Assembly: GCA_043803105.1 (NCBI GenBank)
Contig: JAZDKJ010000005.1
Location: forward strand, 75,566 to 139,565
Reading direction: 5' to 3'
Length of the DNA stretch: 64,000 nucleotides
From: Candidatus Woesearchaeota archaeon
Lineage (GTDB): Archaea > Nanobdellota > Nanobdellia > Woesearchaeales > JAZDKJ01
Numbering within the stretch: position 1 is the stretch's first letter; every line of letters begins with the position of its first letter. The translations under genes and the position numbers were made by a program. The notes below the pieces were generated by a model. It saw only the letters and a program-made list of their open reading frames with translations, had not been told where the DNA came from and searched no databases. Positions 31,164 to 48,459 of the stretch are shown in pieces.

Positions 31164-32318
31164 ATGGGAAAATATTATTTTACATCTGAATCAGTAACAG
31201 AAGGGCACCCTGACAAGATATGCGACCAGATTTCTGACGCAGTGCTAGACGAACTCTTCAAGCAAGACCCTTATTCAAGGGTTGCGGTTGAGTGCCTTAC
31301 AACCACAGGAACAGTGCACGTGGCAGGAGAGGTGACAACAAAGGGCTATGCTGACGTGCAGAAGATTGCAAGGCAAACGCTTCACGACATTGGCTATTGC
31401 GACCCAAGGTTTGGCATAGACTGCGAGGACGCAGGGGTATGGGTCTCGATACATTCACAGAGCGCTGATATCTCCAAAGGCGTAACTGAGCAAGGAAGCC
31501 ACGAGCAGGGAGCAGGAGACCAGGGAATGATGTTCGGGTTTGCATGCAATGAGACAAAAGAGCTGATGCCTCTGCCGATAATGCTCGCGCATAAGCTTTG
31601 CATGAAGCTTTCGGAGGTCAGGAAAAAGTCCATAATAAAAGACATAGGGCCTGACGGGAAATCCCAAGTGACTGTGGAATACCAGGACGGAAAACCAAAG
31701 AGAATTGACGCTGTAGTGATAGCCCAACAGCACACTGAGGAATGCTCAGAAGAAAAACTCAGGGCTGAAATAATAGAGAAGGTGATAAAACCGGTCTGCG
31801 GCCAATACCTAGACAAAGACACAAAGTTGTTCATAAACGCCACGGGAAGGTTTGTCATCGGAGGTCCTGAAGGAGACACTGGCGTTACTGGTAGGAAGAT
31901 AATCGTTGACACATACGGAGGGATGGGAAGGCATGGCGGGGGCTGCTTCTCAGGAAAAGACCCTACAAAGGTGGACAGGTCAGCTGCTTACGCATGCAGG
32001 TATATAGCAAAAAACATAGTGGCAGCTGGACTCGCTGACAGATGTGAAGTACAGCTAGCTTATGCAATAGGCGTAGCAGAACCGATGAACATCTTTGTTG
32101 AGACTTTTGGCACAGGAAAAATACCTGAAGAGAAAATCTCAGAGCTTGTGCGAAAACACTTCCCAGTAAAACCAAAGGACATACTGGACCAGCTGAATCT
32201 ACGAAGGCCAATCTACAAGAAGACAGCAGCGTACGGGCACTTTGGAAGGGAAGATCCTGACTTTACCTGGGAGCGTGTTGATAAAGCCGAGATATTACGC
32301 AAAGAGGCTGGACTTTAA
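31164..32318 (+). CDS. metK: S-adenosylmethionine synthetase, bacterial type
   Basis: [44 protein letters not shown]. Confidence 0.98.
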
Positions 32319-32435
32319 GAAAAGTTCCGTCTTGAAATTTATTTTTTTGTTTTATTTTTAATGAAAAGCAGGGCAGAATAGACGAGATTTCTATCGTAAC
32401 ATTTAGCAAAAGTGTGGCTACAAAAGTGCTACAAA
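32319..32435 (+). repeat. conserved post-tail leader (T-tract, GACGAGATTTCTATCGT, TGTGGCTACA-n3-GTGCTACA)
   Basis: Recurs at ~37410-37580, ~40681-40797 and partly at ~43560-43643. Confidence 0.75.
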
Positions 32436-32498
32436 ATTCATGATTTCTGCAAGACCTAATTGAAAACTTTATATATCAATGCCTGTTGATATGTTTAA

Positions 32499-32786
32499 AT
32501 GCCAGACAAAAATAGATTGCTGCTATTCAAAGCACTAGGCGAAGAAACGAAGTATAGGATTATTGAGCTTCTCCTAAAAAAAGGAGGATGCACTTGTGAG
32601 ACAGGAGAGTATTGCGCCTGTGAAATTCCTTCTATTATCAAGAGAACACAATCTAACACATCTATGCATCTTGCGAAGCTGCAAGAATGGGGGATAGTAA
32701 ACTCAAGAAGAGAAGGCAAGAAAATACTTTACTCAATTAAGGATAAGCGAGTATATGAAATTTTCAAGATATTGAATGACAAATAA
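32499..32786 (+). CDS. arsR: ArsR/SmtB regulator
   Basis: FKALGEETKYRI, CACEI, SNTSMHLAKL, RREGK. Confidence 0.9.
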   Translation: MPDKNRLLLFKALGEETKYRIIELLLKKGGCTCETGEYCACEIPSIIKRTQSNTSMHLAKLQEWGIVNSRREGKKILYSIKDKRVYEIFKILNDK

Positions 32787-32799
32787 ATAAGGGGGCAAA

Positions 32800-33543
32800 A
32801 TGAAACATGAGGATATAAAGAAAGCAGTGAGAAAAAGCTATTCAAAGATAGCCGATACAGGTTGCGGTTGCTCTTGCGGATGCAATAATATGGATAATGA
32901 GCAAATTGCCAAGAGTTTAGGTTACTCTGAGCAAGATATTAAGGCAGTGCCAGAAGCAAATCTTGGACTTGGTTGTGGTAATCCTACTGCTTTAGGGGAG
33001 ATAAAAGAAGGGATGGTAGTTCTTGATTTAGGCTCAGGGGCAGGGTTTGATTGCTTTCTTGCGGCAAAAAAAGTTGGAAAGAAGGGCAAAGTTATAGGTG
33101 TGGACATGACTGAAAAGATGATTAAGAAAGCAAGAGAAAATGCAAAAAAATATGGTCTTAACAATGTTGAATTCAGGTTAGGAGACATTGAGGAATTGCC
33201 CGTAGATGATAACTCCATTGATATTATCATCAGCAATTGCGTCATTAATCTCTCACCTGACAAAGCCAAAGTTTTTGGTGAAGCATTCAGAGTGTTACGG
33301 AAAGGCGGAAAACTACTTGTTTCAGATATGGTTTTATTGAAAGAACTTTCTGAAATGGATAAGAACGATGAAAAATTAATTACTAGGTGTGTTGGCGTGG
33401 CTATACTGAAGAATCAATATCTAAAACTGATTAAGGATGCTGGATTAAATGTCAAGATTCTCTCGGAAGATAAGGAGATAAGCGATAGGCAGTACAGTGG
33501 ATTGCCTGTTGAAAGCCTAAAATTAACCGCATATAAGAAATGA
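32800..33543 (+). CDS. arsM: arsenite methyltransferase
   Basis: [25 protein letters not shown]. Confidence 0.9.
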
Positions 33544-33554
33544 GGGATACGACC

Positions 33555-33785
33555 ATGAAAATTGAAATACTTGGAACAGGTTGTCCGAAGTGCAAGATGC
33601 TTGAAGCCAATGCAAAAAAGGCTGTTGAAGAATTGAGAATCAAGGCAGAGATTGTCAAAGTAACAGAAATAGACAAGATAGTAGACTATGGTGTTATGTC
33701 TACACCAGCACTGGTAGTTGATGGCAAAGTGAAGTCGTATGGCAAAATAGCTAATGTTGAAGAGATCAAGAAATTCTTAAGATGA
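33555..33785 (+). CDS. small thioredoxin-like redox protein (MTH895 type)
   Basis: ILGTGCPKC, YGVMSTPALVVDG. Confidence 0.9.
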   Translation: MKIEILGTGCPKCKMLEANAKKAVEELRIKAEIVKVTEIDKIVDYGVMSTPALVVDGKVKSYGKIANVEEIKKFLR

Positions 33786-33796
33786 GACAAAAATAA

Positions 33797-34864
33797 ATGA
33801 TAGTTACAGATTTATTCATAGCGGGCATAAAGGCAGTAATTGAGTATGTTGCAGCTCATGTTCTAACTTGCCTTGTCCCTGCCTTCTTTATTGCTGGAGC
33901 TATGTCAGCCCTGCTTCCAAAAGAAAAAATCACCCAATACCTTGGTCAAAAAGTTTCAAAGCTTAAGGCATACCCCCTGTCAGTTGTCGCAGGTTTGTTA
34001 CTGGCAGTCTGTTCCTGCACAATCTTACCCTTATTTGCAGGTATAAAGAAGAAAGGCGCAGGGATAGGTCCTGCTTTAGCATTCTTGTATACGGCTCCTG
34101 CTACAAATATAATGGCTATTCTCTTTACTGGAAGCGTTTTAGGATGGAACTTTGCTCTCGCCAGAATAATCTTATCTGTCACTTTTGCAATAGTTATCGG
34201 CATAATAATATCTACAATATTCAAGAAAGAAGATTTGGAGGAAGAGAAAAAGGCAACTCCTGCTCTTGTTAGCGCTAAGGTGCAGGATAGCAAAGATATG
34301 CCATTCTTCCAGAAGCACAGGCTAATATTCTTTTTCATTACACTTGTATCAATACTCATTGTAGGAACGAGAGTGAATGGGTATTTAAGGTACGTAATCA
34401 TAGCTGGCTTAATTGTTATTTTAACACTCTTGACCAAATTGCTTTTCTCAAAAGAAGAAACCAAATCATGGCTTTTTGAAACTTGGACATTCACAAAGAA
34501 GATTTTTCCACTTCTTTTAGGAGGCATCTTCTTAGCAGGTGTCTTAACAGCACTCCTACCTCAAAACTTCCTAGCTACCTTCATGGGCAAAAATACTCTG
34601 TTTGCCAATCTTATTGCCGTATTATTTGGCGTATTTATGTATTTCCCGACCTTGGTAGAAGTTCCAATGGCAAAAATGTTCTTAGGACTTGGCATGGCAA
34701 AAGGACCACTATTTGCCTATCTGCTTGCAGACCCAGTAATCTCACTTGCAAGCATTCTTGTGGTAAGAAAATTCATAGGGACCAAAAGAACCCTAGTTTA
34801 TGTGGGCTTAATCATAGTGTTCACAACAATCTCAGGATTGATATACGGAGCGATAGTAGGGTGA
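33797..34864 (+). CDS. ArsP-family permease
   Basis: HVLTCLVPAFFIAG, LAVCSCTILPLF, ars context. Confidence 0.85.
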   Translation: MIVTDLFIAGIKAVIEYVAAHVLTCLVPAFFIAGAMSALLPKEKITQYLGQKVSKLKAYPLSVVAGLLLAVCSCTILPLFAGIKKKGAGIGPALAFLYTAPATNIMAILFTGSVLGWNFALARIILSVTFAIVIGIIISTIFKKEDLEEEKKATPALVSAKVQDSKDMPFFQKHRLIFFFITLVSILIVGTRVNGYLRYVIIAGLIVILTLLTKLLFSKEETKSWLFETWTFTKKIFPLLLGGIFLAGVLTALLPQNFLATFMGKNTLFANLIAVLFGVFMYFPTLVEVPMAKMFLGLGMAKGPLFAYLLADPVISLASILVVRKFIGTKRTLVYVGLIIVFTTISGLIYGAIVG

Positions 34865-34875
34865 TAGGTGGAAAA

Positions 34876-35337
34876 ATGAAAGCAACGATAATAATCATGG
34901 CTCTAATAGCTCTATTTTTGCAGGGATGTGCTGACACAAACCAGAATTCTTCAATCACAGAAGATTTGTTAAGTAATCAGAGTGCCAAGGCATCAGTAGA
35001 AAAGATTGAAGTTTTCCATTTTCACGGAACGAACCAATGCTATTCATGCAAAACAGTAGGAGCATATGCAAATGAGACAGTATACACATATTATGCTGCC
35101 GAGATTCAGTCAGGCAAGATTGTGTTCAATTCCGTTAATTACGACCTGATAGATAATAAAGTAACAGCCATGAAATATGGCGTTAGTGGTTCATCACTGT
35201 GGATAGGAGTATATGACAGCCAAGGATTCCATCCTGAACAGAACACCAATGTATGGTATAAGATTAATGACAAGCAAGATTTTATGACTTACCTTAAAAG
35301 GATCATTGATAGAAGACTGGCAGGAGATTTTAGCTAG
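34876..35337 (+). CDS. ArsF-like thioredoxin-fold lipoprotein
   Basis: Lipobox LQGC; FHGTNQCYSC. Confidence 0.7.
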   Translation: MKATIIIMALIALFLQGCADTNQNSSITEDLLSNQSAKASVEKIEVFHFHGTNQCYSCKTVGAYANETVYTYYAAEIQSGKIVFNSVNYDLIDNKVTAMKYGVSGSSLWIGVYDSQGFHPEQNTNVWYKINDKQDFMTYLKRIIDRRLAGDFS

Positions 35338-35338
35338 A

Positions 35339-36049
35339 ATGGGATTGATGGCTTTTATGGAGGCTATGGGGAGCAGTAGTATACCACTGATTGCTGCTTT
35401 CTTTATCGGGTTGATGACCGCCATAGCTCCTTGCCCTCTAACCACAAATATCACAGCCATTGCCTACATCTCAAAGAAGATAGGAGATAGCAAACGAACT
35501 CTGCTAATTGGATTGATATACACTCTAGGAAGGGCACTTACTTATGTAGCTATTGCTTCAGTAATCGTTTGGTTAGGGTTAAATATTCAAGCAATTGCTC
35601 TCCCATTGCAGAAATACAGCAATATACTTCTTGGACCATTGCTTATAATAATCGGAATAGTCCTGCTTGAACTAGTAAAGCTTGATTTTATCAAAGGATT
35701 TTCTGGAATCAATAAACTTGAGGAACAGGTTTCTAAACAACGGTATTTTGGAAGCTTTCTCCTTGGAGTGATATTTGCTTTAGCATTCTGCCCATTCAGC
35801 GCTGTTCTGTTCTTTGGTATGCTTATCCCTCTCGCTTTAAAAGCAGGAGATGGGATAGTTATCCCATCGGTTTTTGCGTTAGCAACAGGCCTACCTGTGA
35901 TTATTTTTTCTTTCATCTTGGTGCACAGCGTAACAAAACTGGCAAAGGTGATGAACAAGGTTAGGATAGTTGACAGATGGGTAAGGAATGTTGCAGGGGT
36001 TGTTTTTATCGGAGCAGGAATTTACTACTCAGTGTCTGTTTTCTTGTGA
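35339..36049 (+). CDS. ArsG/DsbD-like membrane protein
   Basis: PCPLTTNITAI, LAFCPFSAVLFFGMLIP. Confidence 0.8.
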   Translation: MGLMAFMEAMGSSSIPLIAAFFIGLMTAIAPCPLTTNITAIAYISKKIGDSKRTLLIGLIYTLGRALTYVAIASVIVWLGLNIQAIALPLQKYSNILLGPLLIIIGIVLLELVKLDFIKGFSGINKLEEQVSKQRYFGSFLLGVIFALAFCPFSAVLFFGMLIPLALKAGDGIVIPSVFALATGLPVIIFSFILVHSVTKLAKVMNKVRIVDRWVRNVAGVVFIGAGIYYSVSVFL

Positions 36050-36050
36050 A

Positions 36051-36085
36051 AAAACTCCGCTCTTCCCGATATATGCCCCGAAAAG
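36051..36085 (+). repeat. core site type A, copy 1
   Basis: AAAACTCCGCTCTTCCCGATATATGCCCCGAAAAG, immediately after the ars operon stop codon. Confidence 0.85.
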
Positions 36086-36124
36086 TATTTATATTCCTTT
36101 TCGTCTATGTTTCTCGACGAGAAG

Positions 36125-36200
36125 AAACTCGACTCATCCCGACTTTGCCTGGGAGAAGATTGACAAAGCAGAAGTGCTGAGAAAAGAAGCAGGACTTTAG
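36125..36200 (+). repeat. metK 3'-tail copy B1
   Basis: AAACTCGACT followed by HPDFAWEKIDKAEVLRKEAGL*. Confidence 0.95.
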
Positions 36201-36295: not shown

Positions 36296-37108
36296 TCAAA
36301 CCATTTCTTCCTTGCACGCAACTAAGTAACTTCTTACCAAATCCAAATCAAGGCAGTCATCTGTTCTAACTCCGCTTTCAACATCGATACTTACCCTATT
36401 TGGAAAAAACGGTAATAAGGACCTAATTAATGGTCTGACATTGGATGGTTTTATCCCTCCAGCATAAACCAATCCTAAGTGGTTTAAACCACTATTTGCA
36501 ATAATACTCTTTCCGAATTTTACTGCCAAACAGCCCTCATCAAGATTCAGGTCTAAATTAGTCCCGTGGCTAGGGTCAAACATTGCATAATCAATAACAC
36601 CTCTTCTATCAATAACTTGGCCAACTAACGGTTCTACTTGTCCAGTTGATACGTCTTCAACTTTATCTCCTTTCCAAACCGCATATCCTTCTTGAGGAGA
36701 CTGTTTGTTTGATACTGCCACTTTGAAAATCACTGTGAAACCCATTTCCTTAATCTTGCTCAGAACATCTAGTGATGCAGGCAATGTGTTAAGCTGGAGT
36801 AATGTAACTGAAGGAGTTACTCCTAACCTAACAATCGTTTCCAAATCTCCAATTATCGTTTCATTATTTTTTGTATAATAATGCACCGCAGTAATGAATC
36901 CATAACCTCTTGTTAGTCTGTCTAGATACCCTAAATCTGCAAACTTTGGCTGTCTTGTGTTTTGGCTCCCTTGGTTTATGCTCTTATTAGAGACTTGGTA
37001 ACCAATAGCCAACGGAAGCGTAAAATCTACCTCATGGCAAATTCCAGCTATTCCGCCGAGCTGATCGCTGTTAGAAATAGCACTTACTGAGATATAATTT
37101 ACTGGCAT
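36296..37108 (-). CDS. TrpF/PRAI-like TIM-barrel protein
   Basis: LLQLN, FDPSHG, YAGGIKPSNV, IDVESGVR. Confidence 0.65.
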   Translation of the reverse strand: MPVNYISVSAISNSDQLGGIAGICHEVDFTLPLAIGYQVSNKSINQGSQNTRQPKFADLGYLDRLTRGYGFITAVHYYTKNNETIIGDLETIVRLGVTPSVTLLQLNTLPASLDVLSKIKEMGFTVIFKVAVSNKQSPQEGYAVWKGDKVEDVSTGQVEPLVGQVIDRRGVIDYAMFDPSHGTNLDLNLDEGCLAVKFGKSIIANSGLNHLGLVYAGGIKPSNVRPLIRSLLPFFPNRVSIDVESGVRTDDCLDLDLVRSYLVACKEEMV

Positions 37109-37258: not shown

Positions 37259-37291
37259 AATCTCAGCTCATCCTGACCAATGCCACAAAAG
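37259..37291 (+). repeat. core site type A, copy 2
   Basis: AATCTCAGCTCATCCTGACCAATGCCACAAAAG. Confidence 0.75.
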
Positions 37292-37334
37292 GTATTTATA
37301 CTTCTGGTTCGTCTACATTTATAGACGGAAAGAG

Positions 37335-37409
37335 AAATCCGCCCACTCTCCCGTTACCTGGGAGAAGACTGACAAAGCAGAAGTGCTGAGAAAGGAAGCA
37401 GGCTTATAG
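37335..37409 (+). repeat. metK 3'-tail copy B2
   Basis: ...TWEKTDKAEVLRKEAGL*. Confidence 0.93.
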
Positions 37410-37480
37410 AAAAATATCAGGACGACAATGACATTTTTTTATTATTTTTTTTTGTTGAAAAGTCGGGATTATAGTCGAGA

Positions 37481-37532
37481 TGCTCAGAAATTATAAATTT
37501 CTGGCACGCTAAAAATCATAGATTTTTGAGCG
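37481..37532. mobile_element. 52-bp double-hairpin insertion (REP/MITE-like)
   Basis: Interrupts GAGA|TTTCTATCGT, which is contiguous in the leader at 32384-32397; inverted ends GCTCA...TGAGC. Confidence 0.65.
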
Positions 37533-37700
37533 TTTCTATCGTACTAAAAAGCAAGAATGTGGCTACATTGGTGCTACAATACATAAGAAAAAAGACCACT
37601 CTTTGCATTAATGATCAAAATATTGTTTATTGATCAATATATTGCTTCAAGCTGGCCATCACTCAGAAAATCTTATAAATATGCTGAATATAAAACCTAT

Positions 37701-38531
37701 ATGAAGATTATACTACTCGGAACAGCAGGGGTGGTACCTATTCCTAGATTGGGATGCTCTTGCGAGATATGCCTTGAAGCCCGAAAAAAGGGCATTCCTT
37801 ATAGTAGGACAGGTACATCGCTATTTGTAGAAGACATCGATTTGCTTTTTGACACCCCTGAGGAGATTAGGGCCTAACTTGAAAGAGAAAAGATTAATTC
37901 CTTAAAGCATGTAATCCTAACACATTGGCATCCTGATCACACCTTAGGGTTGAGGATTCTAGAACAATACAATTTTGATTTTGTCAACAAGGTTTCTTTA
38001 CATGAACCTGTCATGGTATATATTTCACGAGACCAATTTGACATGTTCAAAAAACTCTCTTGCGGAGGTTTTCTTGATTTCTATGAGAAGAAAGGTATTA
38101 TCAAGCTTGTTTTCATTGAACCGAACAAGAAAATTACAATTGGCAAAATTTCGATAGAACCAATATTGATAGAATTCACGAAGGGATTTTACTTTGTAAT
38201 ATCTGAAGGCAAAAAAAAGGTAGTCTATGCGCCTTGCGAATATCACCATTTAGAAGTAGATGTCACAACACGAAATGTTGATGTCTTCATAGCGCATAAT
38301 CTTTTTTGGGAGGATAGGTCAATCAGTCCGCGAAAGGTGCCTCCCTCGGATGAAGATAGTTTTGAGCAAATGCTCAATCATGCAAAAGAGATGAATGCCA
38401 GGAGAATTGTAATTACACACATAGAAGAAACTTTCAAGCTAAATCACGATGAACTCAATGCAGTATTAAGAAAGAAATTTCCTGGGTACAATGTTGAAGC
38501 AGGTTATGATAGCATGAAAATAATTTTATGA
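37701..38531 (+). pseudogene. PhnP-like MBL hydrolase with in-frame TAA at 37875-37877
   Basis: LLGTAG..P..GCSCEIC; reading continues in the same frame LERE...THWHPDH...THIEE. Confidence 0.85.
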
Positions 38532-38559
38532 AGTTGCTTGATTAAGAAGACAAAAATTA

Positions 38560-38910
38560 TTACGGGCTGTATCTTGTCCTGTCCCTTGGGAAAAGGCTCG
38601 CCTGCCTGACATTCTCTAAACCAAGAAATTTGGCAGTCAACCGTTCCCCTCCTATACCAAAACCACCATGAGGGGGCATACCATATTTGAAAGCTGCAAG
38701 ATAGCCTTCAAACTCATCTAGATTCATGTTATTTTTCTTCATGGCAGCTATTAGCATGTCGTAATCGTGAATCCTCTGCCCGCTTGTGGTTACTTCGAGA
38801 CCGTTCATAATAAGGTCAAACGAATTTGTGAGACCATCGTTCTTACCTGAAGGCATCGTATAAAAAGGTCTGGCTTCCGATGGATATTCGGTAAGAAAAA
38901 CAAAGGGCAA
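38560..38910 (-). pseudogene. C-terminal fragment of Asp/Asn-tRNA ligase
   Basis: RPFYTMP, SFDL, GQRIH, YGMPPHGGFGIGGERL, FPRD; N-terminal three quarters absent. Confidence 0.85.
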
Positions 38911-39012
38911 ATTCGAGTCTTGTTATATGAAACTGAGTTATCTCACAGGAAGATGGCTGCTGAAATTAGCATATACTTGCTTGAGAATTTTGGATTAATG
39001 ATTTCGAATTGA
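38892..39012 (+). pseudogene. 3' remnant of a paralog of ORF 40833-41549
   Basis: QIRVLLYETELSHRKMAAEISIYLLENFGLMISN* vs QIRVLLEETKLAHRKMAAEINTYLLESFGLNISS*. Confidence 0.85.
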
Positions 39013-39064
39013 AAGTATCTTTTGCAAGGCAATTTAATAACGAAATGCCCCAAAAACTTTTTAT

Positions 39065-39400
39065 CTAGAATATCTTGACAAGCTCTTCTTTAACTTTTTT
39101 GAATGTGTTCTCCTTCAGAGACCCAATCTTCATGATTATTAGTGATTTTTCTACACAAAATATCTTGTCAACCCTGATTCTACTCTCTGTAACAAGTTTT
39201 CCAGCAGACATATCCTGTTGGCTTATCAGAACTGAATATGGCTCATCTTTTATCACTGAGGTCAATGGCACCATTATGCAATCTGCAGACTTCTTGTTCA
39301 ACAGGTCATTTGAGACGACAAGCGCAGGCCTTACCTTATTTTGCTTCAAATCGGAAAAAGGATAAGGCAACAATACTATGTCTCTTTGCGAGACAATCAT
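39065..39400 (-). CDS. mazF: MazF/PemK toxin
   Basis: DIVLLPYPFSD..KVRPALVVSN, PLTS. Confidence 0.9.
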   Translation of the reverse strand: MIVSQRDIVLLPYPFSDLKQNKVRPALVVSNDLLNKKSADCIMVPLTSVIKDEPYSVLISQQDMSAGKLVTESRIRVDKIFCVEKSLIIMKIGSLKENTFKKVKEELVKIF

Positions 39401-39654
39401 TTCAGGTACGACCCCCAGATGTCATCAGATTTATTGTCCCAAACTTTCTTTAAGGATTTCTCGCTGAATTTCAAAATATCCTTGAATTCATCCTTTAGCT
39501 TTTTTTCAGTGTCCTTGGATTTCTCCAACACTATTTTCCCATCTACCTGAAGCATAACAAGGTCATCCCCCTTCTCAATCCCAAGACTTTCTCTTACGGA
39601 TTGCGGGATGGCTATTTGCCCCTTGTCAGACACTTTTACAGTTGCAATGCTCAT
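39397..39654 (-). CDS. AbrB/MazE antitoxin
   Basis: VSDKGQIAIPQSVRESLGIEKGD; promoter palindrome AGTAAGAATTTTCTTACT at 39673-39690. Confidence 0.9.
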   Translation of the reverse strand: MSIATVKVSDKGQIAIPQSVRESLGIEKGDDLVMLQVDGKIVLEKSKDTEKKLKDEFKDILKFSEKSLKKVWDNKSDDIWGSYLK

Positions 39655-40108: not shown

Positions 40109-40209
40109 GTGAAATAACGCTTATCTTGTATATAATTAGATGGTCTAAATTTAGCCCCTTGTAGGCCTAAAAGAAAGCTTTAAATACATGTTTATCTTTC
40201 AAGATTCCA

Positions 40210-40582
40210 ATGGAGAAATCAGTTTTTTTTGGCGGAGGAGGGAAATACCCCGAAGAACAGGATATGGAGTTTCTTAATAGTACATTCCGAATATGATTAC
40301 TCCATGAGAGAAATCGCAAGATACTCACAAGTAGGTTACACAACATTAAAAGGAATTTGGATAGATTTTAAGAAAAAGAAGATAGTTACGCAAACACGAC
40401 TTGTTGGAAGAGCAAAGATGTACAAGTTAAATCTGAAGAATCCTGTTGTAAATAAATTTGTGGAGTACTATTGGGCTGTGGTGGAAGCGGTCATAAGAAA
40501 GGAAAACAACATCAGCGAGGATGATACAGTAACCCATCCTTCTTCGGCTGATGCGATTCCCCTTTCTACAAAAAGCATTTAA
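40210..40582 (+). CDS. HTH regulator, probable frameshift in T8 tract near start
   Basis: DYSMREIARYSQVGYTTL, TRLVGRAKMYKLN; ATG 40210 joins the frame only if T8 becomes T7. Confidence 0.7.
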
Positions 40583-40603: not shown

Positions 40604-40680
40604 AAAACTCTGCTCATCCGGACTTTACATGGGAATGGGTAGATAAAGCGGAAGTCCTGCGGAGGGAAGCAGGCTTGTAA
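40604..40680 (+). repeat. metK 3'-tail copy B3
   Basis: AAAACTCTGCT followed by HPDFTWEWVDKAEVLRREAGL*. Confidence 0.95.
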
Positions 40681-40832
40681 GCCAAAGTCAAGACGTGAAC
40701 GTCATTTTTTATTTTTGTTTTTTATTGAAAAATCGAAGCTTGTGGACGATATTTCTTTCGTTGTATAAGCAAGATTGTAGCTACATTAGTGCGACGCAAA
40801 GTGTTTTAAGGATTAAATGATTCCTCTCAACG

Positions 40833-41549
40833 ATGGTATACTTACCTAGTCTTGTTGAGTATTTTCAAATTGAAATAGAAGCCCTCAACGGAGTCAGTTG
40901 CTCTACAAGAGCTTCTTCATACATTGTGCCTGAAGATATCTTTGCCCAAAAAGCAAAGTTTGAACCCAGATTTCAAAAGGCCCAAGAAAAAAGCTTACCA
41001 TATACATGGATTGTCTGGGAAGAACCACTAACAGTGGGAGTTTACTTTCCAAGCACACTTTTGCAAAGTCTGGACAATTGCAGATTTGTCAATACAGCTG
41101 ATGCTTTAGATGTCTTGGAAGAAACGAGTCATTTCTTATATATTCATAATTACGCTGCGAGATTCAAGGAAATGCCTCATTATATCAATCTGGAAATAGT
41201 AGCTTCCTTAGAGAAATATTTTGTTACCAAGCAGAAAGCAAAGACTTTGAAAGAATTTGATATGGGTCCTGTAAGAACAGTGTGCTTCAATGGTGCTTAT
41301 CGAGATACTTTGGACATGGACCATATTATTGGTCACTCTTTGGCAGAGCCATTAGCCAAAAAATTGGATGAAGTTGAAGATGAAGCAGGATTATCCCAAA
41401 GAAATGAATTATACAGAAAATTCTATAATAAGGGAAACAAAGAGCAAATCCGAGTGTTGTTGGAAGAGACTAAGTTGGCACACAGGAAGATGGCTGCCGA
41501 AATCAATACTTATCTGCTTGAGAGTTTTGGATTAAATATCTCAAGCTGA
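40833..41549 (+). CDS. hypothetical protein (EETSHF motif, possibly metallopeptidase-like)
   Basis: 238-aa ORF filling one cassette. Confidence 0.6.
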   Translation: MVYLPSLVEYFQIEIEALNGVSCSTRASSYIVPEDIFAQKAKFEPRFQKAQEKSLPYTWIVWEEPLTVGVYFPSTLLQSLDNCRFVNTADALDVLEETSHFLYIHNYAARFKEMPHYINLEIVASLEKYFVTKQKAKTLKEFDMGPVRTVCFNGAYRDTLDMDHIIGHSLAEPLAKKLDEVEDEAGLSQRNELYRKFYNKGNKEQIRVLLEETKLAHRKMAAEINTYLLESFGLNISS

Positions 41550-41574: not shown

Positions 41575-41608
41575 AAAACTCCGCTTTTCCCGATATATGC
41601 CCCGAAAG
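41575..41608 (+). repeat. core site type A, copy 4
   Basis: AAAACTCCGCTTTTCCCGATATATGCCCCGAAAG, nearly identical to copy 1. Confidence 0.88.
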
Positions 41609-41651
41609 CTACTGTATCTCTCCTGTAATTATCATTTATTAAGCTCCTTAT

Positions 41652-41701: not shown

Positions 41702-42271
41702 ATGCGAGGCGATAAACGAGAAAGGATATTGAGAGTATTGCTCAACAGCAAAGAGCCTTTAAGCAAGAATGAGCTCTCAAAACGAGCAGATTGCAGTAGG
41801 CAGTGGGTTATCCTTTATCTGAAAGAGTTAGAGAAGAAGAAGCTTATCAAGGGCACCGCTCCAAGTAATAGAAAAAAACTTTTAGAATATTGGATTATCT
41901 TAGCAAAGAAACCTAAAAAATTCAGGAGTTATATGGTTAAGGAACCACTAGATCTTTTAAAAAAGTCAAAATTAGATTATACGCTGACAACCTATCAGGC
42001 AGAGAACATTGTTCAGCATTATCTTTTCCCCTCAAGAATAGATGTTTACATAAAAGAAGAAGATTTGAATAGTTGGCACAGCCTAATGACCAAGAATGGA
42101 TTATATGGAAAAGGAAATGTTAAGGTGATAGTAGCAGATCCGCATGTTATGTATGGAAAACGAATTATAGATGGACTTTCAATAGTCTCACTGCCACAAC
42201 TTATATTGGATTTAACTCAAGAAGGTGGTCCATGCCAGGAAGCTGCCGAGATGCTCATGAAGAGGTTATAA
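41702..42271 (+). CDS. HTH + AbiEi-like antitoxin
   Basis: N-terminal HTH; YTLTTYQAE, IDVYI, VSLPQLILDL...GG. Confidence 0.7.
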   Translation: MRGDKRERILRVLLNSKEPLSKNELSKRADCSRQWVILYLKELEKKKLIKGTAPSNRKKLLEYWIILAKKPKKFRSYMVKEPLDLLKKSKLDYTLTTYQAENIVQHYLFPSRIDVYIKEEDLNSWHSLMTKNGLYGKGNVKVIVADPHVMYGKRIIDGLSIVSLPQLILDLTQEGGPCQEAAEMLMKRL

Positions 42272-43035
42272 TGTATAAGGAATTTGAGACTAGAATATCG
42301 TACAAGTATTTGAAAGAGGTAATCAACACTCTAGAAGAGCCTATTTGCATACTTGGCGGTTGGGCAGTATTCTTTCATGTAAATAACAGATTTGAGAAAG
42401 CACAAGGCAGGCCTTATTTAGGAAGCAGAGATATTGACTTGGGCTTCCAAATGAAGACAAATTTGAAAGAAACAACTTTGGCTCAAACAATTAGGATTCT
42501 CAAAGAAGAACTCAAGTTTAAGCCGTTAAGTTTCAGGCTTATGAAAGAAATCCATACTGAAACAGAGGAAGAGCTAAAAGAAGGTGAGACTGTCTCTACT
42601 CACTTTATCTTTCCAATGTATGTTGATTTGATAGTTGACTCTATTCCTGACAACTTCAAGAATATTTTTGGATTTAACCCAATAGATGAGCCTTTATTGA
42701 AACAAGTTTTTGAGAACAAGGAATCCACAATGGTCACTGAATTCAATAGAAAATTATTGCTTCCCACCCCTAAGCTTCTTTTAGGCATGAAAGTCAATTC
42801 CCTGCCAAATAGAGATAAAGACCATAAGCGAATAAAAGACATTTGTGACATGTTCGCTTTGTTGTGGTATACAGATATAAAGGCAGAAAAAGTTAATCTC
42901 GGAGATTACGCTTCAAAAAAAGCTATTATAAAAGCTGTTCAAACAATAAATAACCAGGATTACGAAAAAGTGGCTGCTCAAATTGGGCATAGTGCTGAAG
43001 AAATTAAGAGAGTCATCAGCCTATTATTACAATAA
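42271..43035 (+). CDS. AbiEii-like nucleotidyltransferase toxin
   Basis: ILGGWAV, SRDIDLG, MKVNS..R...KRIKDICD. Confidence 0.75.
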   Translation: MYKEFETRISYKYLKEVINTLEEPICILGGWAVFFHVNNRFEKAQGRPYLGSRDIDLGFQMKTNLKETTLAQTIRILKEELKFKPLSFRLMKEIHTETEEELKEGETVSTHFIFPMYVDLIVDSIPDNFKNIFGFNPIDEPLLKQVFENKESTMVTEFNRKLLLPTPKLLLGMKVNSLPNRDKDHKRIKDICDMFALLWYTDIKAEKVNLGDYASKKAIIKAVQTINNQDYEKVAAQIGHSAEEIKRVISLLLQ

Positions 43036-43139: not shown

Positions 43140-43172
43140 AAACTCTGCCCACTCCGACTAATGCCCCGAAAG
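43140..43172 (+). repeat. core site type A, copy 5
   Basis: AAACTCTGCCCACTCCGACTAATGCCCCGAAAG. Confidence 0.8.
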
Positions 43173-43256
43173 CCAATCAGTTGTATTTGTCCACAGCCAG
43201 GATTACAAACATTTTAATATCCGAATACAGTGGATATCTGGTGAGGTGAGAAATTG

Positions 43257-43469
43257 ATGTCCAAAAAAGATATGAAAAATCAGTGTTTTAACCATGGCTC
43301 CTTTCACCATGGCTGCGGCGGAGCGCTTTATGGCCTTGGGTTTATTGGTTCGGCTGTGTATTACATTTCCACAGCAACAGGCTTTTGGATGGGAGTGTTG
43401 GGATTTTTGAAAGCGATTGTTTGGCCAGCATTCTTGGTATATTCGCTAATGAAATCCTTGGGGATGTAA
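43257..43469 (+). CDS. small membrane protein
   Basis: GAGGTGA SD; YGLGFIGSAVYYI...LKAIVWPAFLVY. Confidence 0.75.
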   Translation: MSKKDMKNQCFNHGSFHHGCGGALYGLGFIGSAVYYISTATGFWMGVLGFLKAIVWPAFLVYSLMKSLGM

Positions 43470-43483: not shown

Positions 43484-43556
43484 AAACTCGACTCATCCTG
43501 ACTTTACCTGGGAGCATGTAGATAAGGCAGAGATACTAAAAAAGGAAGCAGGATTG
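43484..43556 (+). repeat. metK 3'-tail copy B4
   Basis: AAACTCGACT followed by HPDFTWEHVDKAEILKKEAGL (stop lost). Confidence 0.93.
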
Positions 43557-43825
43557 TTAGTTGCGTTATCGTCACAATTCCCATTTTTTTATATTTAATT
43601 TTTTTTGTGTAAAGACATCATTTTGGGATGAGATTTCTCTTGTAAATTAAATTAAGTACAAAATTCGGACGCATCGAAGATTTTACAACAACTGGGAAAT
43701 TTTCACTAAACATTTGGACGATGAAGATGATGATTACATCCGAACAAACGAAATATTTATATAGAACTATTAGTTCCTATATATGAACCATTAGTTCCGA
43801 TATAGGAACTGCAGGTTATTATGCC

Positions 43826-44419
43826 ATGAAAACGCCAACTGAAAAGGAGAATGAAGCATTGTTGTTGATATTCAAGGATTTTAGTAGCGACTACAATGCT
43901 AACTCAATCTCGAAAAAACTGAATATAACGCCAAGAGGTTCTTTAAAGATATTGAATAGTCTTTACTCAGAAAAGACCCTAGTAAGAAAAAAGCTTGGCA
44001 AAGCTATCTTTTATAAAATCGATTTTGAAGATAATTACACTAAAAAATTGATTGAAGCCCTATTGATAAAAGAATCCAAGGAAAAAGCAGAAAGGTGGCT
44101 GCATGAATTTGGAGGATTAGCTGAAACTGCGCAGATTGTATTAATCTATGGTTCGACTCTAAGAAACTATGACAAAGCCAAGGATGTAGATTTACTGGTG
44201 ATTATTGAGAAAGAGAGGTATAAGGAAGTTAAAAAATTTATTGATGAGAAAAACAATATTTCCTACAAGCCAATACATCCGCTAATAATGACCTTATCAG
44301 ATTTGGAAAAGAACTTGAAAAACAAAAATCCTGCAATGGTTAATGCCATAAGAGAAAGTTATGTTCTTCAAGGTCATGATAAAATGATAGGGGTAGTAAA
44401 AAATGTCACAAGCTTCTAA
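43826..44419 (+). CDS. HTH-MNT antitoxin
   Basis: N-terminal wHTH; IYGS...DVDLL; GAAC-n-ATTAGTTC repeats upstream. Confidence 0.85.
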   Translation: MKTPTEKENEALLLIFKDFSSDYNANSISKKLNITPRGSLKILNSLYSEKTLVRKKLGKAIFYKIDFEDNYTKKLIEALLIKESKEKAERWLHEFGGLAETAQIVLIYGSTLRNYDKAKDVDLLVIIEKERYKEVKKFIDEKNNISYKPIHPLIMTLSDLEKNLKNKNPAMVNAIRESYVLQGHDKMIGVVKNVTSF

Positions 44420-44915
44420 TAAAGTTAAGTGGTGTCTTAACAAGGCAAAGAAGGAATTAGCAGAAATTGGGATGCATCGTGGATTAGTAGAACAAGAACA
44501 AGACTATAAAGTGGCAGCACTTCATATAGCAAAAGCACGACATAACCTCAATGCAGCATTATTTTTTGAGAAAAACAATTATTCTGACTGGTCTGCAAGT
44601 GCTTTCTTCTATTGCATATATCATTGCTTTTTAGCAATCCTGCACAGATTCGGATACGAATCAAGAAACCAGGAATGCACTATTGCAGTAATTGAAATGC
44701 TAAAAGAACAAGGCAAAATTGCTATTGATGATAGATTCATCAGCACTTTAAAGATTTCGAAGGCAAAAGACGATGAGCATAGCTTAGTTAAGATAAGGGA
44801 AGATTTTCAGTATGGCACAAACATAGAGTTTCAGAAGAAAGAACAATTTGAAGAGCTTACCATAATGTGCAAGGAAGCAATAGAAGCAACAAATAAAATT
44901 ATCTTCAGCAAATAA
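44403..44915 (+). CDS. HEPN domain protein
   Basis: AKARHNL, FYCIYH, SRNQECT, REDFQY. Confidence 0.85.
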   Translation: MSQASNKVKWCLNKAKKELAEIGMHRGLVEQEQDYKVAALHIAKARHNLNAALFFEKNNYSDWSASAFFYCIYHCFLAILHRFGYESRNQECTIAVIEMLKEQGKIAIDDRFISTLKISKAKDDEHSLVKIREDFQYGTNIEFQKKEQFEELTIMCKEAIEATNKIIFSK

Positions 44916-44958
44916 AACTCAGCCCATTCCGACCTTACATGGCAAAAAACGGACAAGG
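44914..44958 (+). repeat. metK 3'-tail copy B5 (degenerate, truncated)
   Basis: AAAACTCAGCC followed by HSDLTWQKTDK; overlaps the HEPN stop codon. Confidence 0.75.
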
Positions 44959-45377
44959 TTAGATTAGCAACGGACGGGATTTTAAGAGGTTCAGAAATCC
45001 CTTGATCTCCAAATTCTCTTGTTCTTGACTTTATAAACTTTCAGGAACTGAATTCAGAACCAACCTTAACGAAGTATATAAGCACCATCTGCTCTTCTTA
45101 AAATGAACCTAGGTGGTGCAAAATTATACAAACCGAAAAGACAGCATTTGATCTGCAGATGAAGGAGCAACAAGTAGCGCATTGGGAAACCTACCATCAA
45201 TTGCCTGGATGCAGGGAAATGGGAGAACATCTTGACAAGCAACCTGAGGAGGCAAACTGGAATGGTCAAAGACTGACCCAAAAGTTAGAACCTACTGAGA
45301 GTTTTGTAGATGCAAGTTTTGTGGCTGAACGGGAACTCGATCTCGTCCAGTCAATCCTTGTACTGCAACGTCTTTAA

Positions 45378-47096
45378 TTAAGGTCCTCTAAACTGTCTCA
45401 AGAGCCAGGCGAACAAGTTGTTCAACCATGAAGGCTTAGTAACAGTATGACCTAACGCTTGACCAGTAATCTGGTTGTTGTCAGTTGAAGCAGTTCCATT
45501 AGTACCCTGACCAGTCCCCCCAGTTTCTTGTCTAATGTTGGCCAATTCTGCTGTCTGTAGCTCTGTTGGCACAGTCCTATCTTGGCCTACCGCATTTGTT
45601 TCAGTATGTTTACATGGTTGCTTTTGTTTTGATATGACCTTGCTATTTGGGTAGGTGCATGTCTTTATTTGTATTCCTTCTGAATTGCATGCTGACCATT
45701 CTGAACACTGCCCATTAGCTCCCAAACTTCCGCTACCTCCTGAACTTCCTCCTCCTCCTGAGGATCTCTTTTTCGCAGCCGGATTTGTCGGAATTGTTGG
45801 TGCCTGGAATTCGTTTACTGTTATTGTTATAGCTTCGCTTGCCGATTTTATACTGTCGTTAACTGTGAAGGTCACGTTAGTTACTCCCACATCAGTCACG
45901 TTTGGCATCCAGTTGAAGGTAGCAGTCCCGTCATAATTGTTGGTAAAGTTTGCTGTTGCAGGTTTGCCGGCAATTACAAATGTTAAATTAAACCCGTCTG
46001 GACTTGTGGCTGTTATTGTGAAGTTAAGCAATGTATCCTGCGTAACGCTCATTGAACCGATATGATTGAGTATCGGAGCAGCTGTCTGTACAATAACTAC
46101 GCTTGTTGCGCTTACAGTTCCGCTCGTCGCACTAATTGTAGCGCCGCCAGAAGCAACAGCAGTAACAAGACCGCTTGTAGCATTAACTGTAGCAACAGAC
46201 AAATTGCTTGAAGCATAGGAGATGGTCGCACCTATCAACGAACCATACTGATCAAGACTTGTAGCATTCAACTGCAAAGTAGATCCGACAGTAAGATTTG
46301 CTGATGTTGGTGCTAATATGATTGTTGTCAAAACAGGGACAATAGATGGTAATGAGACAGTATTGGCACTTAATGTAACAGCTGTTTGCGCCAATGCCCT
46401 TCCGTTTAATGTTGCGCCAGTATTCAACACAATCGCTGTTTGATCCAGAATGTTTCCATTGAAAACAGATGTTGTTCCAAGGGTTGTTTTGTCAGCGACT
46501 TGCCAGAAGATGTTGTATGCCTGGCAGCTACCGCTGAGAGTAACAATTGCACCACTGCCCACGGTGAGGGTTCCTGGTATCTGAAAGATGAAGACACCTG
46601 CGGAGTTGCCAAGGCAATCGAGAGTGACACCAGTGTTTATTACAACCCCAGTCCCCCATTTATAGAGCCCAGGAGTGAGAGTCATCCCACTAATATCTCC
46701 CGCACCTAGTTCAGTAACATCAGGTAATGAGCGTCCTGCCGCATCAGTGTACGCTGTTTCCATGTCGCTTATAGCTGTAGCCATAACCAATGGGGTTGGA
46801 TCTGCATAGTCGGCTGCATAAACGCTTCCGTTAACTAAAGATGATGTGGAAAATTGGTTCGATGCATCAAGTATCAGTCCAAATCCTGTGATCGCAGTGC
46901 TGTCGATAGGACTCACCCCAATATTTCCAACAATAGAGGTTGTGCCAGTGGTTGAGATTCCTGATTTTGCCAATATTACAAAATTCCCGGCTGTTCCGAG
47001 ATCTACAGCTGGTTGTGCTGCATATACTGAACATACTACAGATACAAAAACCATAAGATATACAAAGACGTTTGATAATATTTTTGTTTGTTTCAT
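45378..47096 (-). CDS. ice-binding (DUF3494) protein with Ig-like domains
   Basis: LGTAGNFVILAKSGIS, TAYTDAAGR, LTPGLYKW, NIFWQVA, GRALAQTAVTL. Confidence 0.92.
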   Translation of the reverse strand: MKQTKILSNVFVYLMVFVSVVCSVYAAQPAVDLGTAGNFVILAKSGISTTGTTSIVGNIGVSPIDSTAITGFGLILDASNQFSTSSLVNGSVYAADYADPTPLVMATAISDMETAYTDAAGRSLPDVTELGAGDISGMTLTPGLYKWGTGVVINTGVTLDCLGNSAGVFIFQIPGTLTVGSGAIVTLSGSCQAYNIFWQVADKTTLGTTSVFNGNILDQTAIVLNTGATLNGRALAQTAVTLSANTVSLPSIVPVLTTIILAPTSANLTVGSTLQLNATSLDQYGSLIGATISYASSNLSVATVNATSGLVTAVASGGATISATSGTVSATSVVIVQTAAPILNHIGSMSVTQDTLLNFTITATSPDGFNLTFVIAGKPATANFTNNYDGTATFNWMPNVTDVGVTNVTFTVNDSIKSASEAITITVNEFQAPTIPTNPAAKKRSSGGGGSSGGSGSLGANGQCSEWSACNSEGIQIKTCTYPNSKVISKQKQPCKHTETNAVGQDRTVPTELQTAELANIRQETGGTGQGTNGTASTDNNQITGQALGHTVTKPSWLNNLFAWLLRQFRGP

Positions 47097-47354
47097 TTTT
47101 TAATTCCTCCCTAAATAATAAAATACCGTAATGGTAGCAATTTTTTCTGCCTGAAGTTCACATATAGTCCTTAACCCATTGATACAGTTTTATTCTGACT
47201 ATTTTTTACTTCTTAGCAATAGTAATTACTTTTATTACTATAAACATAAGTTATATACTATATATTCAATATATATGCTATAATTACGTCTATAATATAG
47301 GTACTGAAAATAAGTAGTTAGTTTTATATATAACACTAAGTTATTATATATACT

Positions 47355-48347
47355 ATGGAAGATATTAGGGATGAAAGAAAATTAATTAAGTTTGGGAAAT
47401 CAGCTTTTTGTATAACTGTGCCACATACGTGGCTGAAAAAAAACAGGATAAAGAAAGGCGATTCATTGTCTGTTCAGGAAACCCTAAGAAATTCTTTGGA
47501 GATAATGCCAAGGTATAGCTCTTCAAAGGATGCAGAGGAATTATTAATAGACATATCTGGAAAGTCGACTGATGAAATAATACAATTGCTGCTCTCCACA
47601 TACCTAAATGGATATACACTTATCACCTTGCGCGGACCAAATGCAGGAAAAATGGAATTCGTCAGAAAGCATGTACACGAATTTATTGCAGCTGAGATTA
47701 TGGAAGTTACCTCAGACAGGATAGTAATCCAGGTTTTTTGGGACATAAAGACCATAAACCTAAATTCAATAATCATAAGGATAGGACATATCACAAAGAG
47801 CATTTTTTCAGAAACAATAGAGTTGGTTGATTCAGAAACAAATGTAACAGATATAGTGGAAAAAGGATTTGAGGTCCAGCGGCAAGTCTTGCTTGCAAGA
47901 AGGGCCATCCAAAGTGCCCTCAATAATTCGGTTACAGCACACAAATTTAATCTTTCATCATTAGAGCTGCTCTATATCTCTTACATAATCTATTTTTTCG
48001 GAATGACTGGTGATTATATTGTTAAGGTAGCAAAAATTATAGATAAGGCAAAACTCAATAAATCCAAGGATCTTTTGAAGGATCAGAATTCCAAAAAAGA
48101 GTTAAAGGCGTTAATTCAACGGACCTCAGATTATTACGGAAAAGTCATCGATACTTACAATCAGCATAACAAACTTGTAAAGTTTGTATTTAGCGAATAT
48201 GCTGATTTTGAAGACTCCATAGATGAGTTTAGAAGAAAGAACCTCCAAGTATGGGCACCGCTTTTGGCGGAATATCTAAAGATGATTGTATTCAAGATTA
48301 AGGAAACAGAATTCACGATGATCAGCATGGAGAATGCACCAAAATAA
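47355..48347 (+). CDS. AbrB-PhoU type regulator
   Basis: RKLIKFGKSAFCITVPHTW, YLNGY, helical C-terminus. Confidence 0.75.
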   Translation: MEDIRDERKLIKFGKSAFCITVPHTWLKKNRIKKGDSLSVQETLRNSLEIMPRYSSSKDAEELLIDISGKSTDEIIQLLLSTYLNGYTLITLRGPNAGKMEFVRKHVHEFIAAEIMEVTSDRIVIQVFWDIKTINLNSIIIRIGHITKSIFSETIELVDSETNVTDIVEKGFEVQRQVLLARRAIQSALNNSVTAHKFNLSSLELLYISYIIYFFGMTGDYIVKVAKIIDKAKLNKSKDLLKDQNSKKELKALIQRTSDYYGKVIDTYNQHNKLVKFVFSEYADFEDSIDEFRRKNLQVWAPLLAEYLKMIVFKIKETEFTMISMENAPK

Positions 48348-48382
48348 TTTATCCTTTTTCCTCTGGTTTTATAGATGGGAAG

Positions 48383-48459
48383 AAACTCGACTCATCGAGA
48401 CTTTCCCTGGCAGCGAACAGACAAGGCTGAAACATTCCAAAAGGAGGCAAGCACCTTAG
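48383..48459 (+). repeat. metK 3'-tail copy B6 (degenerate)
   Basis: AAACTCGACT followed by HRDFPWQRTDKAETFQKEA. Confidence 0.85.

Follow-up and report, generated by a model that had tools for sequence, protein, structure and literature searches.

Six small recombinase-free elements probably stand in tandem behind metK in a Woesearchaeota genome

The stretch analyzed here, referred to below as the window, comprises 64,000 nucleotides (nt) of a Candidatus Woesearchaeota archaeon genome (assembly GCA_043803105.1, contig JAZDKJ010000005.1, positions 75,566 to 139,565). The source genome, G000, has 13 contigs and 1.56 Mb, and the window, G000:C5:75566-139565, reaches the end of its contig. It contains metK, the gene for S-adenosylmethionine (SAM) synthetase, and the 16 kb behind this gene are probably made up of six small integrative elements, non-autonomous and stacked in tandem; the enzyme that inserted them serially would be a conservative site-specific recombinase, and most likely one of the tyrosine type acting in trans. 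The initial annotation of this DNA had proposed repeated site-specific insertion at an attachment (att) site in a protein-coding gene, and that proposal is supported: the junctions are precise, the displaced gene tails are constrained as coding sequence, the same modules bound unrelated cargo, and the site components are absent from relatives that lack the modules.

The insertion target is the following gene:

31164-32318 (+): metK, SAM synthetase of 384 amino acids (aa), matching Pfam S-AdoMet_synt_N, M and C with E 1e-41 to 8e-70

We take these three domains to mark the bacterial-type, not the archaeal-type, SAM synthetase. The repeated part of metK begins at 32253 and covers 21 residues; the tail now in use (T0) is the last 65 nt, 32254-32318, in frame and with its stop. 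This tail is repeated six times downstream in direct orientation, which gives G000 seven tails in all. At 36125, 40605, 43484, 44915 and 48383 the copies stand behind an arm, AAACTCnnCyC, which takes the place of the metK sequence to the left of the core ATCCnGAC. A foreign arm had been ascribed to every copy; this is true of the five just named, but at 37335 both arm and core are degenerate, and the copy is frameshifted. The same arm and core joined to another right half, (w)ATGCCCCGAAAG, are found at 36052, 37259, 39716, 41576 and 43141. All 11 sites noted in the initial annotation, like the native tail, are real and lie within 1 nt of the positions it gave, but they are not equivalent: six are tail-bearing junctions (A1-A6, with the displaced tails T1-T6) and five form a second class (B1-B5).

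Chance can be excluded as the origin of these sites, since the pattern AAACTCNNCNCNTCCNGAY (19 nt, at most one mismatch) has nine matches in the window, all on the + strand, against 0.02 expected from 100 shuffles, and since nhmmer profiles of the A and B sites match only this array across the 13 contigs (E 1e-11 to 1e-23). The profile of a third component, the P' block, is likewise confined to the array within the 1.56-Mb genome, and no further A or B site was found by profile search beyond A6. All 11 sites are co-oriented, and the units between them hold 0-5 genes, with cargo on both strands.

Read from crossover to crossover, an element consists of a replacement tail with its stop and a T-run, the P' block, the cargo, optionally a B site with a box resembling the B recognition element and TATA box (BRE/TATA-like box) and an inverted repeat, and finally the arm. 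The six elements measure 1.2-3.9 kb each and ~16 kb in total. The conserved parts make up an att module of ~300 nt, in the order B, BRE/TATA-like box, inverted repeat, arm-core, tail and P'. The P' block, ~100 nt of conserved non-coding sequence after the T-run, is present behind T0, A2, A3 and A4, and a truncated version could be recognized by eye after A1. In the composites B1/A1 and B2/A2 the second site starts 74-76 nt after the first, and the interval holds a BRE/TATA-like box and an inverted repeat; this repeat has a 10-8-10 layout, yTTyTCGTCT-N8-AGACGArAAG. Motifs of the GACGAGA type flank the crossover on both sides. The sites and blocks of the array, from metK outward, are:

32342-32438 (+; C5:107907-108003): P' after T0, left end of element M1; nhmmer E 2.8e-19; preceded by a T-run at 32333-32359; repeat families D5 and D8
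36052-36085 (+): B1, arm and core with ATGCCCCGAAAAG
36081-36124 (+): between B1 and A1, BRE/TATA-like box (36081-36097) and inverted repeat CTTTTCGTC-N10-GACGAGAAG (36097-36124)
36125-36200 (+): A1, arm and core with intact T1 (PDFAWEKIDKAEVLRKEAGL, then stop); E 5e-23; ratio of nonsynonymous to synonymous differences (pN/pS) 0.19 against T0
37259-37332 (+): B2, A-like arm and core joined to a B right half; TATA-like box 37287-37304; inverted repeat 37306-37332
37335-37409 (+): A2, degenerate arm and core with frameshifted T2; E 1e-18
37435-37587 (+): P' after T2, with a 46-nt insertion; E 3.9e-18
39716-39749 (+): B3, profile and pattern match
40605-40680 (+): A3, arm and core with intact T3 (PDFTWEWVDKAEVLRREAGL, then stop); E 1.6e-21; pN/pS 0.08
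40704-40802 (+): P' after T3; E 3.7e-19; similar to the sequence behind metK of genome G005
41576-41609 (+): B4, profile and pattern match
43141-43174 (+): B5, A-like core ..CTCCGAC joined to a B right half
43484-43559 (+): A4, arm and core with T4, whose stop codon is lost; E 1.6e-23
43587-43683 (+): P' after T4; E 1.8e-11
43736-43764 (+): degenerate B-like (twelfth) site and TATA box ahead of the nucleotidyltransferase (NTase) gene; its counterpart at the same place in genome G212 is an intact B
44915-44990 (+): A5, arm overlapping the HEPN stop, with heavily decayed T5; E 4.6e-14; pN/pS 0.67
48383-48459 (+): A6, arm and core (ATCGAGAC) with decayed T6; E 1.9e-20; pN/pS 0.29; outer end of the array

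Rfam returned no family in 30-50 kb, and the window has no tRNA gene. The BRE/TATA-like box with its 10-8-10 repeat aims into displaced tails at 36081-36124 and 37287-37332 and at the corresponding places of loci L050 (~5490-5540) and L038 (~4170-4200); no open reading frame (ORF) start and no RNA structure signal was found there. A small RNA that would start at the TATA-like box and cover arm, core and tail was considered and dropped (RNA fold z -1.3 to +1.4, no Rfam match).

The junctions are exact. The break between the arm and metK homology falls on the identical nucleotide in A1, A3, A4, A5 and A6, and again in three other genomes (G088, G009 and G212) and at loci L050 and L047, so that the module boundaries coincide with the core. 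Cargo genes lie within 0-36 nt of a conserved end at six of the seven sites preceded by a + strand gene, the distance from stop to arm being 2-3 nt at B1, 14-15 nt at A4, 22 nt at A3, 26 nt at B4, 35-36 nt at A6 and 105 nt at B5, with an overlap at A5. The array has a GC content of 0.32-0.46 per kb, mostly 0.34-0.40, compared with ~0.43 for the genome and 0.46 for the kilobase of metK (31-32 kb).

The displaced tails have the properties of gene ends that were once in use. T1 and T3 are intact with a stop in the metK frame, T4 has lost its stop, T2 is frameshifted, and T5 and T6 are decayed. T1, T3 and T4 differ from T0 at 13-20 of 60 nt with pN/pS of only 0.08-0.19; the ratio is 0.24 within G212, 0.14 between the A1 tail of G000 and the tail of G088, and 0.29 for T6 and 0.67 for T5, the outermost two. 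Since pN/pS is low and the synonymous sites of the tails are near saturation, the tails are old, separate lineages of working metK ends and not fresh local duplicates. Such separate lineages are the expected signature of elements that bring their own replacement tail, and decay increases approximately outward along the array.

MetK was matched in 31 of the 41 genomes of our relatives set. In 401 genomes of the order, the arm-plus-core pattern matched eight genomes and its reversed control 0; on inspection the matches in G009, G212, G088 and G315 proved genuine. Those in G120, G049 and G017 were rejected as chance (the G120:C5 match lies inside an ORF, and the four loci L039-L042 have no significant site). 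With one genome per species, the exact A-site pattern was found only in G088, G009 and G212; it also matched four metagenome contigs and 0 viral contigs, and the 42 loci matched by the B-site pattern in viral contigs include none with a real module. Homologous modules stand behind metK in five other genomes at the order level (G088, G009, G212, G315 and G005) and on metagenome contigs: those of the A, B and P' kinds are present in G088, G009, G212, G315 and contig L050, and G005 and contig L047 show them in part. G315 is an unpublished genome, and the claims resting on it are to be read as such.

The other arrays are built as follows. G088 has T0, P', a gene for a 177-aa protein and a B-A composite. 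In G315, where the A arm is different, there are two elements with B-A composites. L050 shows T0, P', a gene for a 502-aa MutS_V-like protein and a B-A composite, then P' and another gene; G005 shows T0 and P' before its contig ends, with a left end like that of element M4 of G000. G212 and G009, which belong to the same genus, have T0, P', B, a TATA box, the NTase/HEPN pair, A, and then housekeeping genes for aldolase and thermosome, G009 being without P'. After the metK stop ~125 nt (T-run, P' and B arm) are missing in G009 (L036) relative to G212 (L037), and the right edge of this deletion lies at the B core.

By its upstream synteny L050 belongs to the same genus as G000, and its MetK is 84% identical. 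It has no cargo in common with G000, yet its B-A composite is identical to that of B1/A1 at 85 of 96 nt, and the adjoining tails are 75% identical. The NTase/HEPN element, with 74-82% aa identity, occupies the fifth place counted from metK in G000 and the place next to metK in G009 and G212. Gene order behind metK is not fixed among relatives. Of the other relatives, 20 have 1.2-20 kb assembled past metK, and all 20 show only the native tail, with no displaced tail, B, P' or integrase. The recurrence of the same modules with other cargo, together with their absence from these 20 relatives, shows that the modules are part of the elements rather than of the original surroundings of metK. They occur patchily over five families, with both ends conserved across them. 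In G001, G002, G004, G005, G006, G027 and G037 the contig ends in metK or within ~2 kb of it; strain-variable insertions at metK would give such contig breaks.

These comparisons also bear on the concern that the array is an assembly artefact, in which the metK-downstream regions of different strains were concatenated through the shared tail. The genome is indeed a metagenome assembly, and contigs of several relatives break at or near metK. However, site regions share no exact repeat longer than 24 nt, the tails are 58-83% identical, independent assemblies (G088, G212, G315 and L050) have the same architecture, and decay has made the outer tails pseudogene copies, which sets them apart from strain alleles. 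We regard an artefact as extremely improbable.

The serial insertion that we favor would proceed as follows. Elements would pass through a circular form and cross over within the last 21 codons of metK, at ATCCnGAC..., the same site each time. To the right of the crossover each would supply a replacement tail with its own stop and T-run, followed by P'; to the left it would contribute the arm AAACTCnnCyC, usually also a B copy, a BRE/TATA-like box and a short inverted repeat. On integration the tail of the element would keep metK intact, and the previous tail would be left behind the element, fused to its arm. The newest element would accordingly lie beside metK and the oldest tails outermost. 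What kind of recombinase acted, in which order the elements arrived and that they pass through a circle are inferred here.

Several observations weigh against this scheme. No recombinase has been tied to the sites, so that we infer the central catalytic step, and the crossover has no dyad typical of a tyrosine-recombinase core, the best reaching 7-8/11. From the simple model the five B sites would not be expected, and B2 and B5 hint at extra exchanges. The outward decay is not strictly monotonic, A2 being worse than A3. The divergence of the NTase/HEPN element (74-82% aa identity) is about that of MetK itself (~72%), which fits vertical inheritance as well as transfer. Finally, all the genomes are metagenome assemblies.

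The B sites allow two readings. On the one hand, B may be an accessory binding site within one large attP: in the composites B and A are spaced 62-80 nt apart with no cargo between, and this spacing, together with the GACGAGA-type motifs on both sides, resembles a large attP with several protein-binding sites. On the other hand, a second class of cassette, which lacks a tail and inserts at displaced sites, may have its junctions at B. Extended to the whole locus, the second reading describes an integron-like platform with two tiers, in which A and B are both working sites, tail-bearing units enter at metK, tail-less units (arm-core-Q, promoter and gene) enter or leave at any displaced site, and 11 exchangeable units are served by one host recombinase. 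The solitary B sites (B3, B4, B5 and that of G212) follow cargo stops as the A arms do; the distance from stop to arm is 26 nt at B4 and 105 nt at B5, and 2-3 nt at B1 of the composite. The solitary sites are followed by promoter-like boxes (BRE/TATA-like boxes after the B right halves) and by small gene sets that make plausible self-contained modules (the helix-turn-helix (HTH) and AbiEii-like pair, the 71-aa ORF, and NTase/HEPN in G212). B2 and B5 moreover look like A/B hybrids, with an A-type left part and a B right half, as an A x B exchange would give. Against the two-tier arrangement, the composites without cargo (twice in G000, in L050, in G088 and twice in G315) are too short for a circle and fit an accessory site better, no element was found that has a B-bounded unit in one homologous copy and lacks it in another, the hybrid arms are few, and no recombinase is known for it. 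We consider it possible but unlikely.

The absence of integrases from the locus, which the initial annotation had also claimed, extends beyond G000. The array contigs of six genomes (G000, G009, G212, G088, G315 and G005) have no PF00589 match, and tblastn with the five tyrosine recombinases of G000, the other integrase probes used, gave no match in any array locus. No cargo gene of the six elements in G000 is a recombinase, and of 11 complete elements, which come from five independent arrays (G000, L050, G088, G212/G009 and G315), not one carries a recombinase or a detectable fragment of one. The four metagenome contigs matching the A-site pattern contain no integrase, exact patterns found no integrase-bearing carrier of the site among 2.9 million viral contigs, in the set of one genome per species or among the metagenome contigs scanned, and alignment of the integrases to viral contigs returned no relatives. 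Families other than tyrosine recombinases were also considered: neither a serine recombinase nor an IS110/bridge-RNA system was found in G000.

One possible explanation for the lack of integrases is fossil accretion, in which larger integrase-bearing elements (a provirus, plasmid or island) arrived and then lost the integrase and most genes, leaving the array as a graveyard. Such decay is a documented route to integrase-less, att-flanked elements in bacteria, according to the account of Streptococcus elements in PMC5704250, and loss of the integrase after integration is presumed for archaea in PMC8371274. It would agree with the gene fragments in unit M3a (possible metallo-beta-lactamase-fold pieces and the C-terminus of an aminoacyl-tRNA synthetase, aaRS) and with the decayed state of A2, A5 and A6. 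It fits poorly with the lack of any integrase or remnant in the elements of the five arrays, with cargo packed so close to the conserved ends, with ends that are both conserved across five families, and with the failure to find an integrase-bearing carrier, and we consider it unlikely. The lack of a recombinase in all 11 elements, their uniformly small size and the conserved non-coding ends across five families suggest a dedicated family of non-autonomous elements rather than random decay.

Where a recombinase acting in trans might be encoded was examined in the whole of G000, which has five PF00589 matches, on C6, C7 and C10 and none on C5. The C6 protein is an XerA equivalog (NCBIfam recomb_XerA_Arch, 249.6 bits with a cut-off of 220); it also gives the best integron-integrase score in G000, below the cut-off of that family. 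Three others are 413-438 aa long with a C-terminal zinc-ribbon-like motif, and one further match, a paralogue on C6, is weak.

Hijacking of XerA, the host chromosome-dimer resolvase, would explain how integrase-less elements are inserted, as in the integrative mobile elements exploiting Xer (IMEX), a known case of small integrase-less elements stacked in tandem. Every array genome searched has a tyrosine recombinase, and XerA is the only one with clear counterparts in several of them (36-42% identity in G009, G088 and G315, three of five; weaker in G005 and G212). Yet the target here is coding sequence and not dif, which consists of two 11-bp inverted arms and a 6-bp spacer (PMC2958812), and no such 11-6-11 dyad is present at the crossover. 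The one good inverted repeat of the module, that of B1/A1, has no second copy elsewhere in the genome, and XerA occurs almost everywhere, whereas none of the 20 relatives examined has an array. The resemblance to IMEX therefore covers small tandem elements without an integrase and the presence of a host Xer recombinase, but not dif mimicry by the att site, which here lies within a protein-coding gene. We judge this explanation to be rather improbable.

The initial annotation had suggested looking for a recombinase whose distribution tracks the arrays, and the zinc-ribbon integrase on C10 (413 aa) does so in part. Close orthologues (40-49% identity) occur in 4 of the 41 genomes of the relatives set (G000, G005, G009 and G015), and these include all three genomes of the set with array evidence. 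The protein is missing from the array genomes G212, G088 and G315 (protein query and PF00589), G015 has three copies but neither metK nor a site was found there, no att-module motif is near the gene, and its neighbours are not conserved. It stands directly after a tRNA gene, the usual setting of a tRNA-specific integrase, and is for this reason rated a weak candidate; mobilization of the metK elements by it and its orthologues appears improbable. The tRNA genes directly before the zinc-ribbon integrases (G000:C10 ~28.4-30.1 kb, locus L105; L106, L107 and L108) contain introns. They were recognized by Rfam in G005 and G015 (two of five loci) and by eye in G000 and G009, and by ARAGORN in none; those of G000 and G009 seemingly have more than one intron.

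The initial annotation did not recognize the array as a described system, which is too strong a statement, because tandem accretion, outward pushing of older elements and integration into archaeal protein genes have been described (PMC5704250, bioRxiv 10.1101/2020.12.28.424599, PMC8371274). A close parallel is with the integrative and conjugative elements (ICE), integrative and mobilizable elements (IME) and cis-mobilizable elements (CIME) of Streptococcus, which accrete in tandem at the 3' end of a gene and whose integrase-less CIMEs keep their att sites, as outlined in PMC5704250. As in the CIME arrays treated there, elements are stacked at one gene's 3' end with direct repeats of the gene end and the gene left intact, and some lack an integrase but have both att sites, the recombinase acting in trans. 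The direct repeats and the replacement tail are found in our locus too, while a cognate integrase, on an element or on a known helper, was not found. Unlike in CIME arrays, every element of the arrays seen here is without an integrase, and no helper is known; their size is only 1.2-3.9 kb, both ends are conserved non-coding modules, the host is of the DPANN type, and the target is metK.

Serial insertion pushes older elements outward in the tycheposons of Prochlorococcus as well (bioRxiv 10.1101/2020.12.28.424599). With these, as that preprint presents them, the metK array shares repeated integration at one site, scattered partial copies of the target, adaptive or defence cargo and a streamlined genome. 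Tycheposons, however, carry their own tyrosine or large serine recombinase, often with replication genes, and target tRNA genes, none of which is seen here. Among archaeal tyrosine integrases, integration into protein genes, tandem integrations and integrated elements without an integrase are all on record (PMC8371274), but the elements treated there are proviruses and plasmids of many kb, in which the absence of the integrase is ascribed to loss; the term DPANN is absent from the main text of that source. A limited literature search found no published tandem array targeted to metK in archaea, and no such elements in Woesearchaeota or other DPANN archaea.

The likeness to integrons that had been proposed holds as an analogy. 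Clusters of attC sites lacking an adjacent integron-integrase (CALINs) are common, with archaeal integrons included in the survey of bioRxiv 10.1101/2022.02.06.479319, and the metK array may resemble integrons and CALINs, as described there, in being a row of small cassettes with one recombination site each beside a fixed platform; toxin-antitoxin cargo is found in both. The claim that attC and intI are lacking was correct: no intI, attI or folded attC palindrome is present, and an attC-like or otherwise hairpin-dependent site was rejected on the basis of single-stranded DNA folds of six site regions (z -1.2 to +1.0) and dyads of at most 7-8/11. Unlike integron cassettes, the units here are often multi-gene, use both strands and have their own promoter-like boxes, and each insertion duplicates the gene tail, which never happens in integrons. 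Carrying the analogy further, the metK 3' end might play the role of attI and the ~300-nt att module that of attC, in a dedicated capture platform of some Woesearchaeales-type DPANN archaea, where a recombinase encoded at another locus (host XerA or an unrecognized family) would shuffle cassettes with and without tails; we offer this tentatively, as a possibility to which we give limited credence.

The genomes of DPANN archaea are small, and little is understood of the ways in which accessory genes reach them; the metK locus presents a precise, reusable insertion point in the end of an essential gene. The packets inserted there are uniformly small and recombinase-free, with defence-like, toxin-antitoxin, metal-handling and surface genes as cargo. 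Should a recombinase of the host or of a helper element act here in trans, the array would be an archaeal counterpart of cassette and satellite systems, and the compact pair of recombinase and att site a possible tool. If the locus is indeed a capture platform, it would give genome-reduced symbionts a private route to genes of these kinds.

The cargo of the individual units is as follows (family assignments by Pfam where so marked):

32499-36049 (+): M1, ArsR-type HTH protein of 95 aa, SAM methyltransferase of 247 aa, thioredoxin-like protein of 81 aa, ArsP-type permease of 355 aa and DsbD-like membrane protein of 247 aa (Pfam)
36296-37108 (-): M2, 270-aa protein with a weak, sub-threshold PRAI-like C-terminus
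37611-39654 (both strands): M3a, ORFs of 88 and 193 aa, a 116-aa class II aaRS C-terminal fragment (-), MazF (-) and MazE (-)
39800-40582 (both strands): M3b, small proteins of 102 aa (-) and 117 aa (+), the latter matching the N-terminal part of a PADLOC candidate family
40833-41549 (+): M4a, 238-aa protein of no known family and with no matches
41702-43035 (+): M4b, HTH protein of 189 aa (Pfam HTH_11) and a 267-aa protein with an AbiEii-like nucleotidyltransferase fold
43254-43469 (+): M4c, 71-aa ORF, hydrophobic-looking by eye
43826-44915 (+): M5, NTase of 197 aa and HEPN protein of 170 aa (Pfam); PADLOC PDC-M05A
45378-48347 (both strands): M6, ice-binding-like surface protein of 572 aa (-) and AbrB-plus-PhoU-type regulator of 330 aa (+) (Pfam)

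No duplicates of the array cargo were found elsewhere in the genome. In M3a, the 88-aa and 193-aa ORFs (37611-38531, +), the second of which has a sub-threshold match to the metallo-beta-lactamase fold, may be pieces of one gene. The class II aaRS fragment of the same unit (38560-38910, -; Pfam tRNA-synt_2, E 7e-34) has no close full-length copy in the genome at E<1e-10, and it could be the displaced or replacement tail of another integrative element family. Two further assignments come from Atlas structure matches and serve as leads: the predicted fold of the 267-aa protein of M4b matched an AbiEii cluster with a TM of 0.74, and all 30 of 30 matches of the 330-aa regulator of M6 were MazE or PhoU clusters. 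Pfam, NCBIfam and PADLOC were negative for an AbiE or PhoU identity of this cargo.

Beyond A6 the GC content stays low (0.36-0.39) at 51000-56000, a stretch with no A, B or P' site that may be another island of different origin. Just outside the array, a second ice-binding-like (PF11999) protein is encoded at 49439-50974 (-), which is 44% identical over 122 aa to the one in the array (45378-47096, -).

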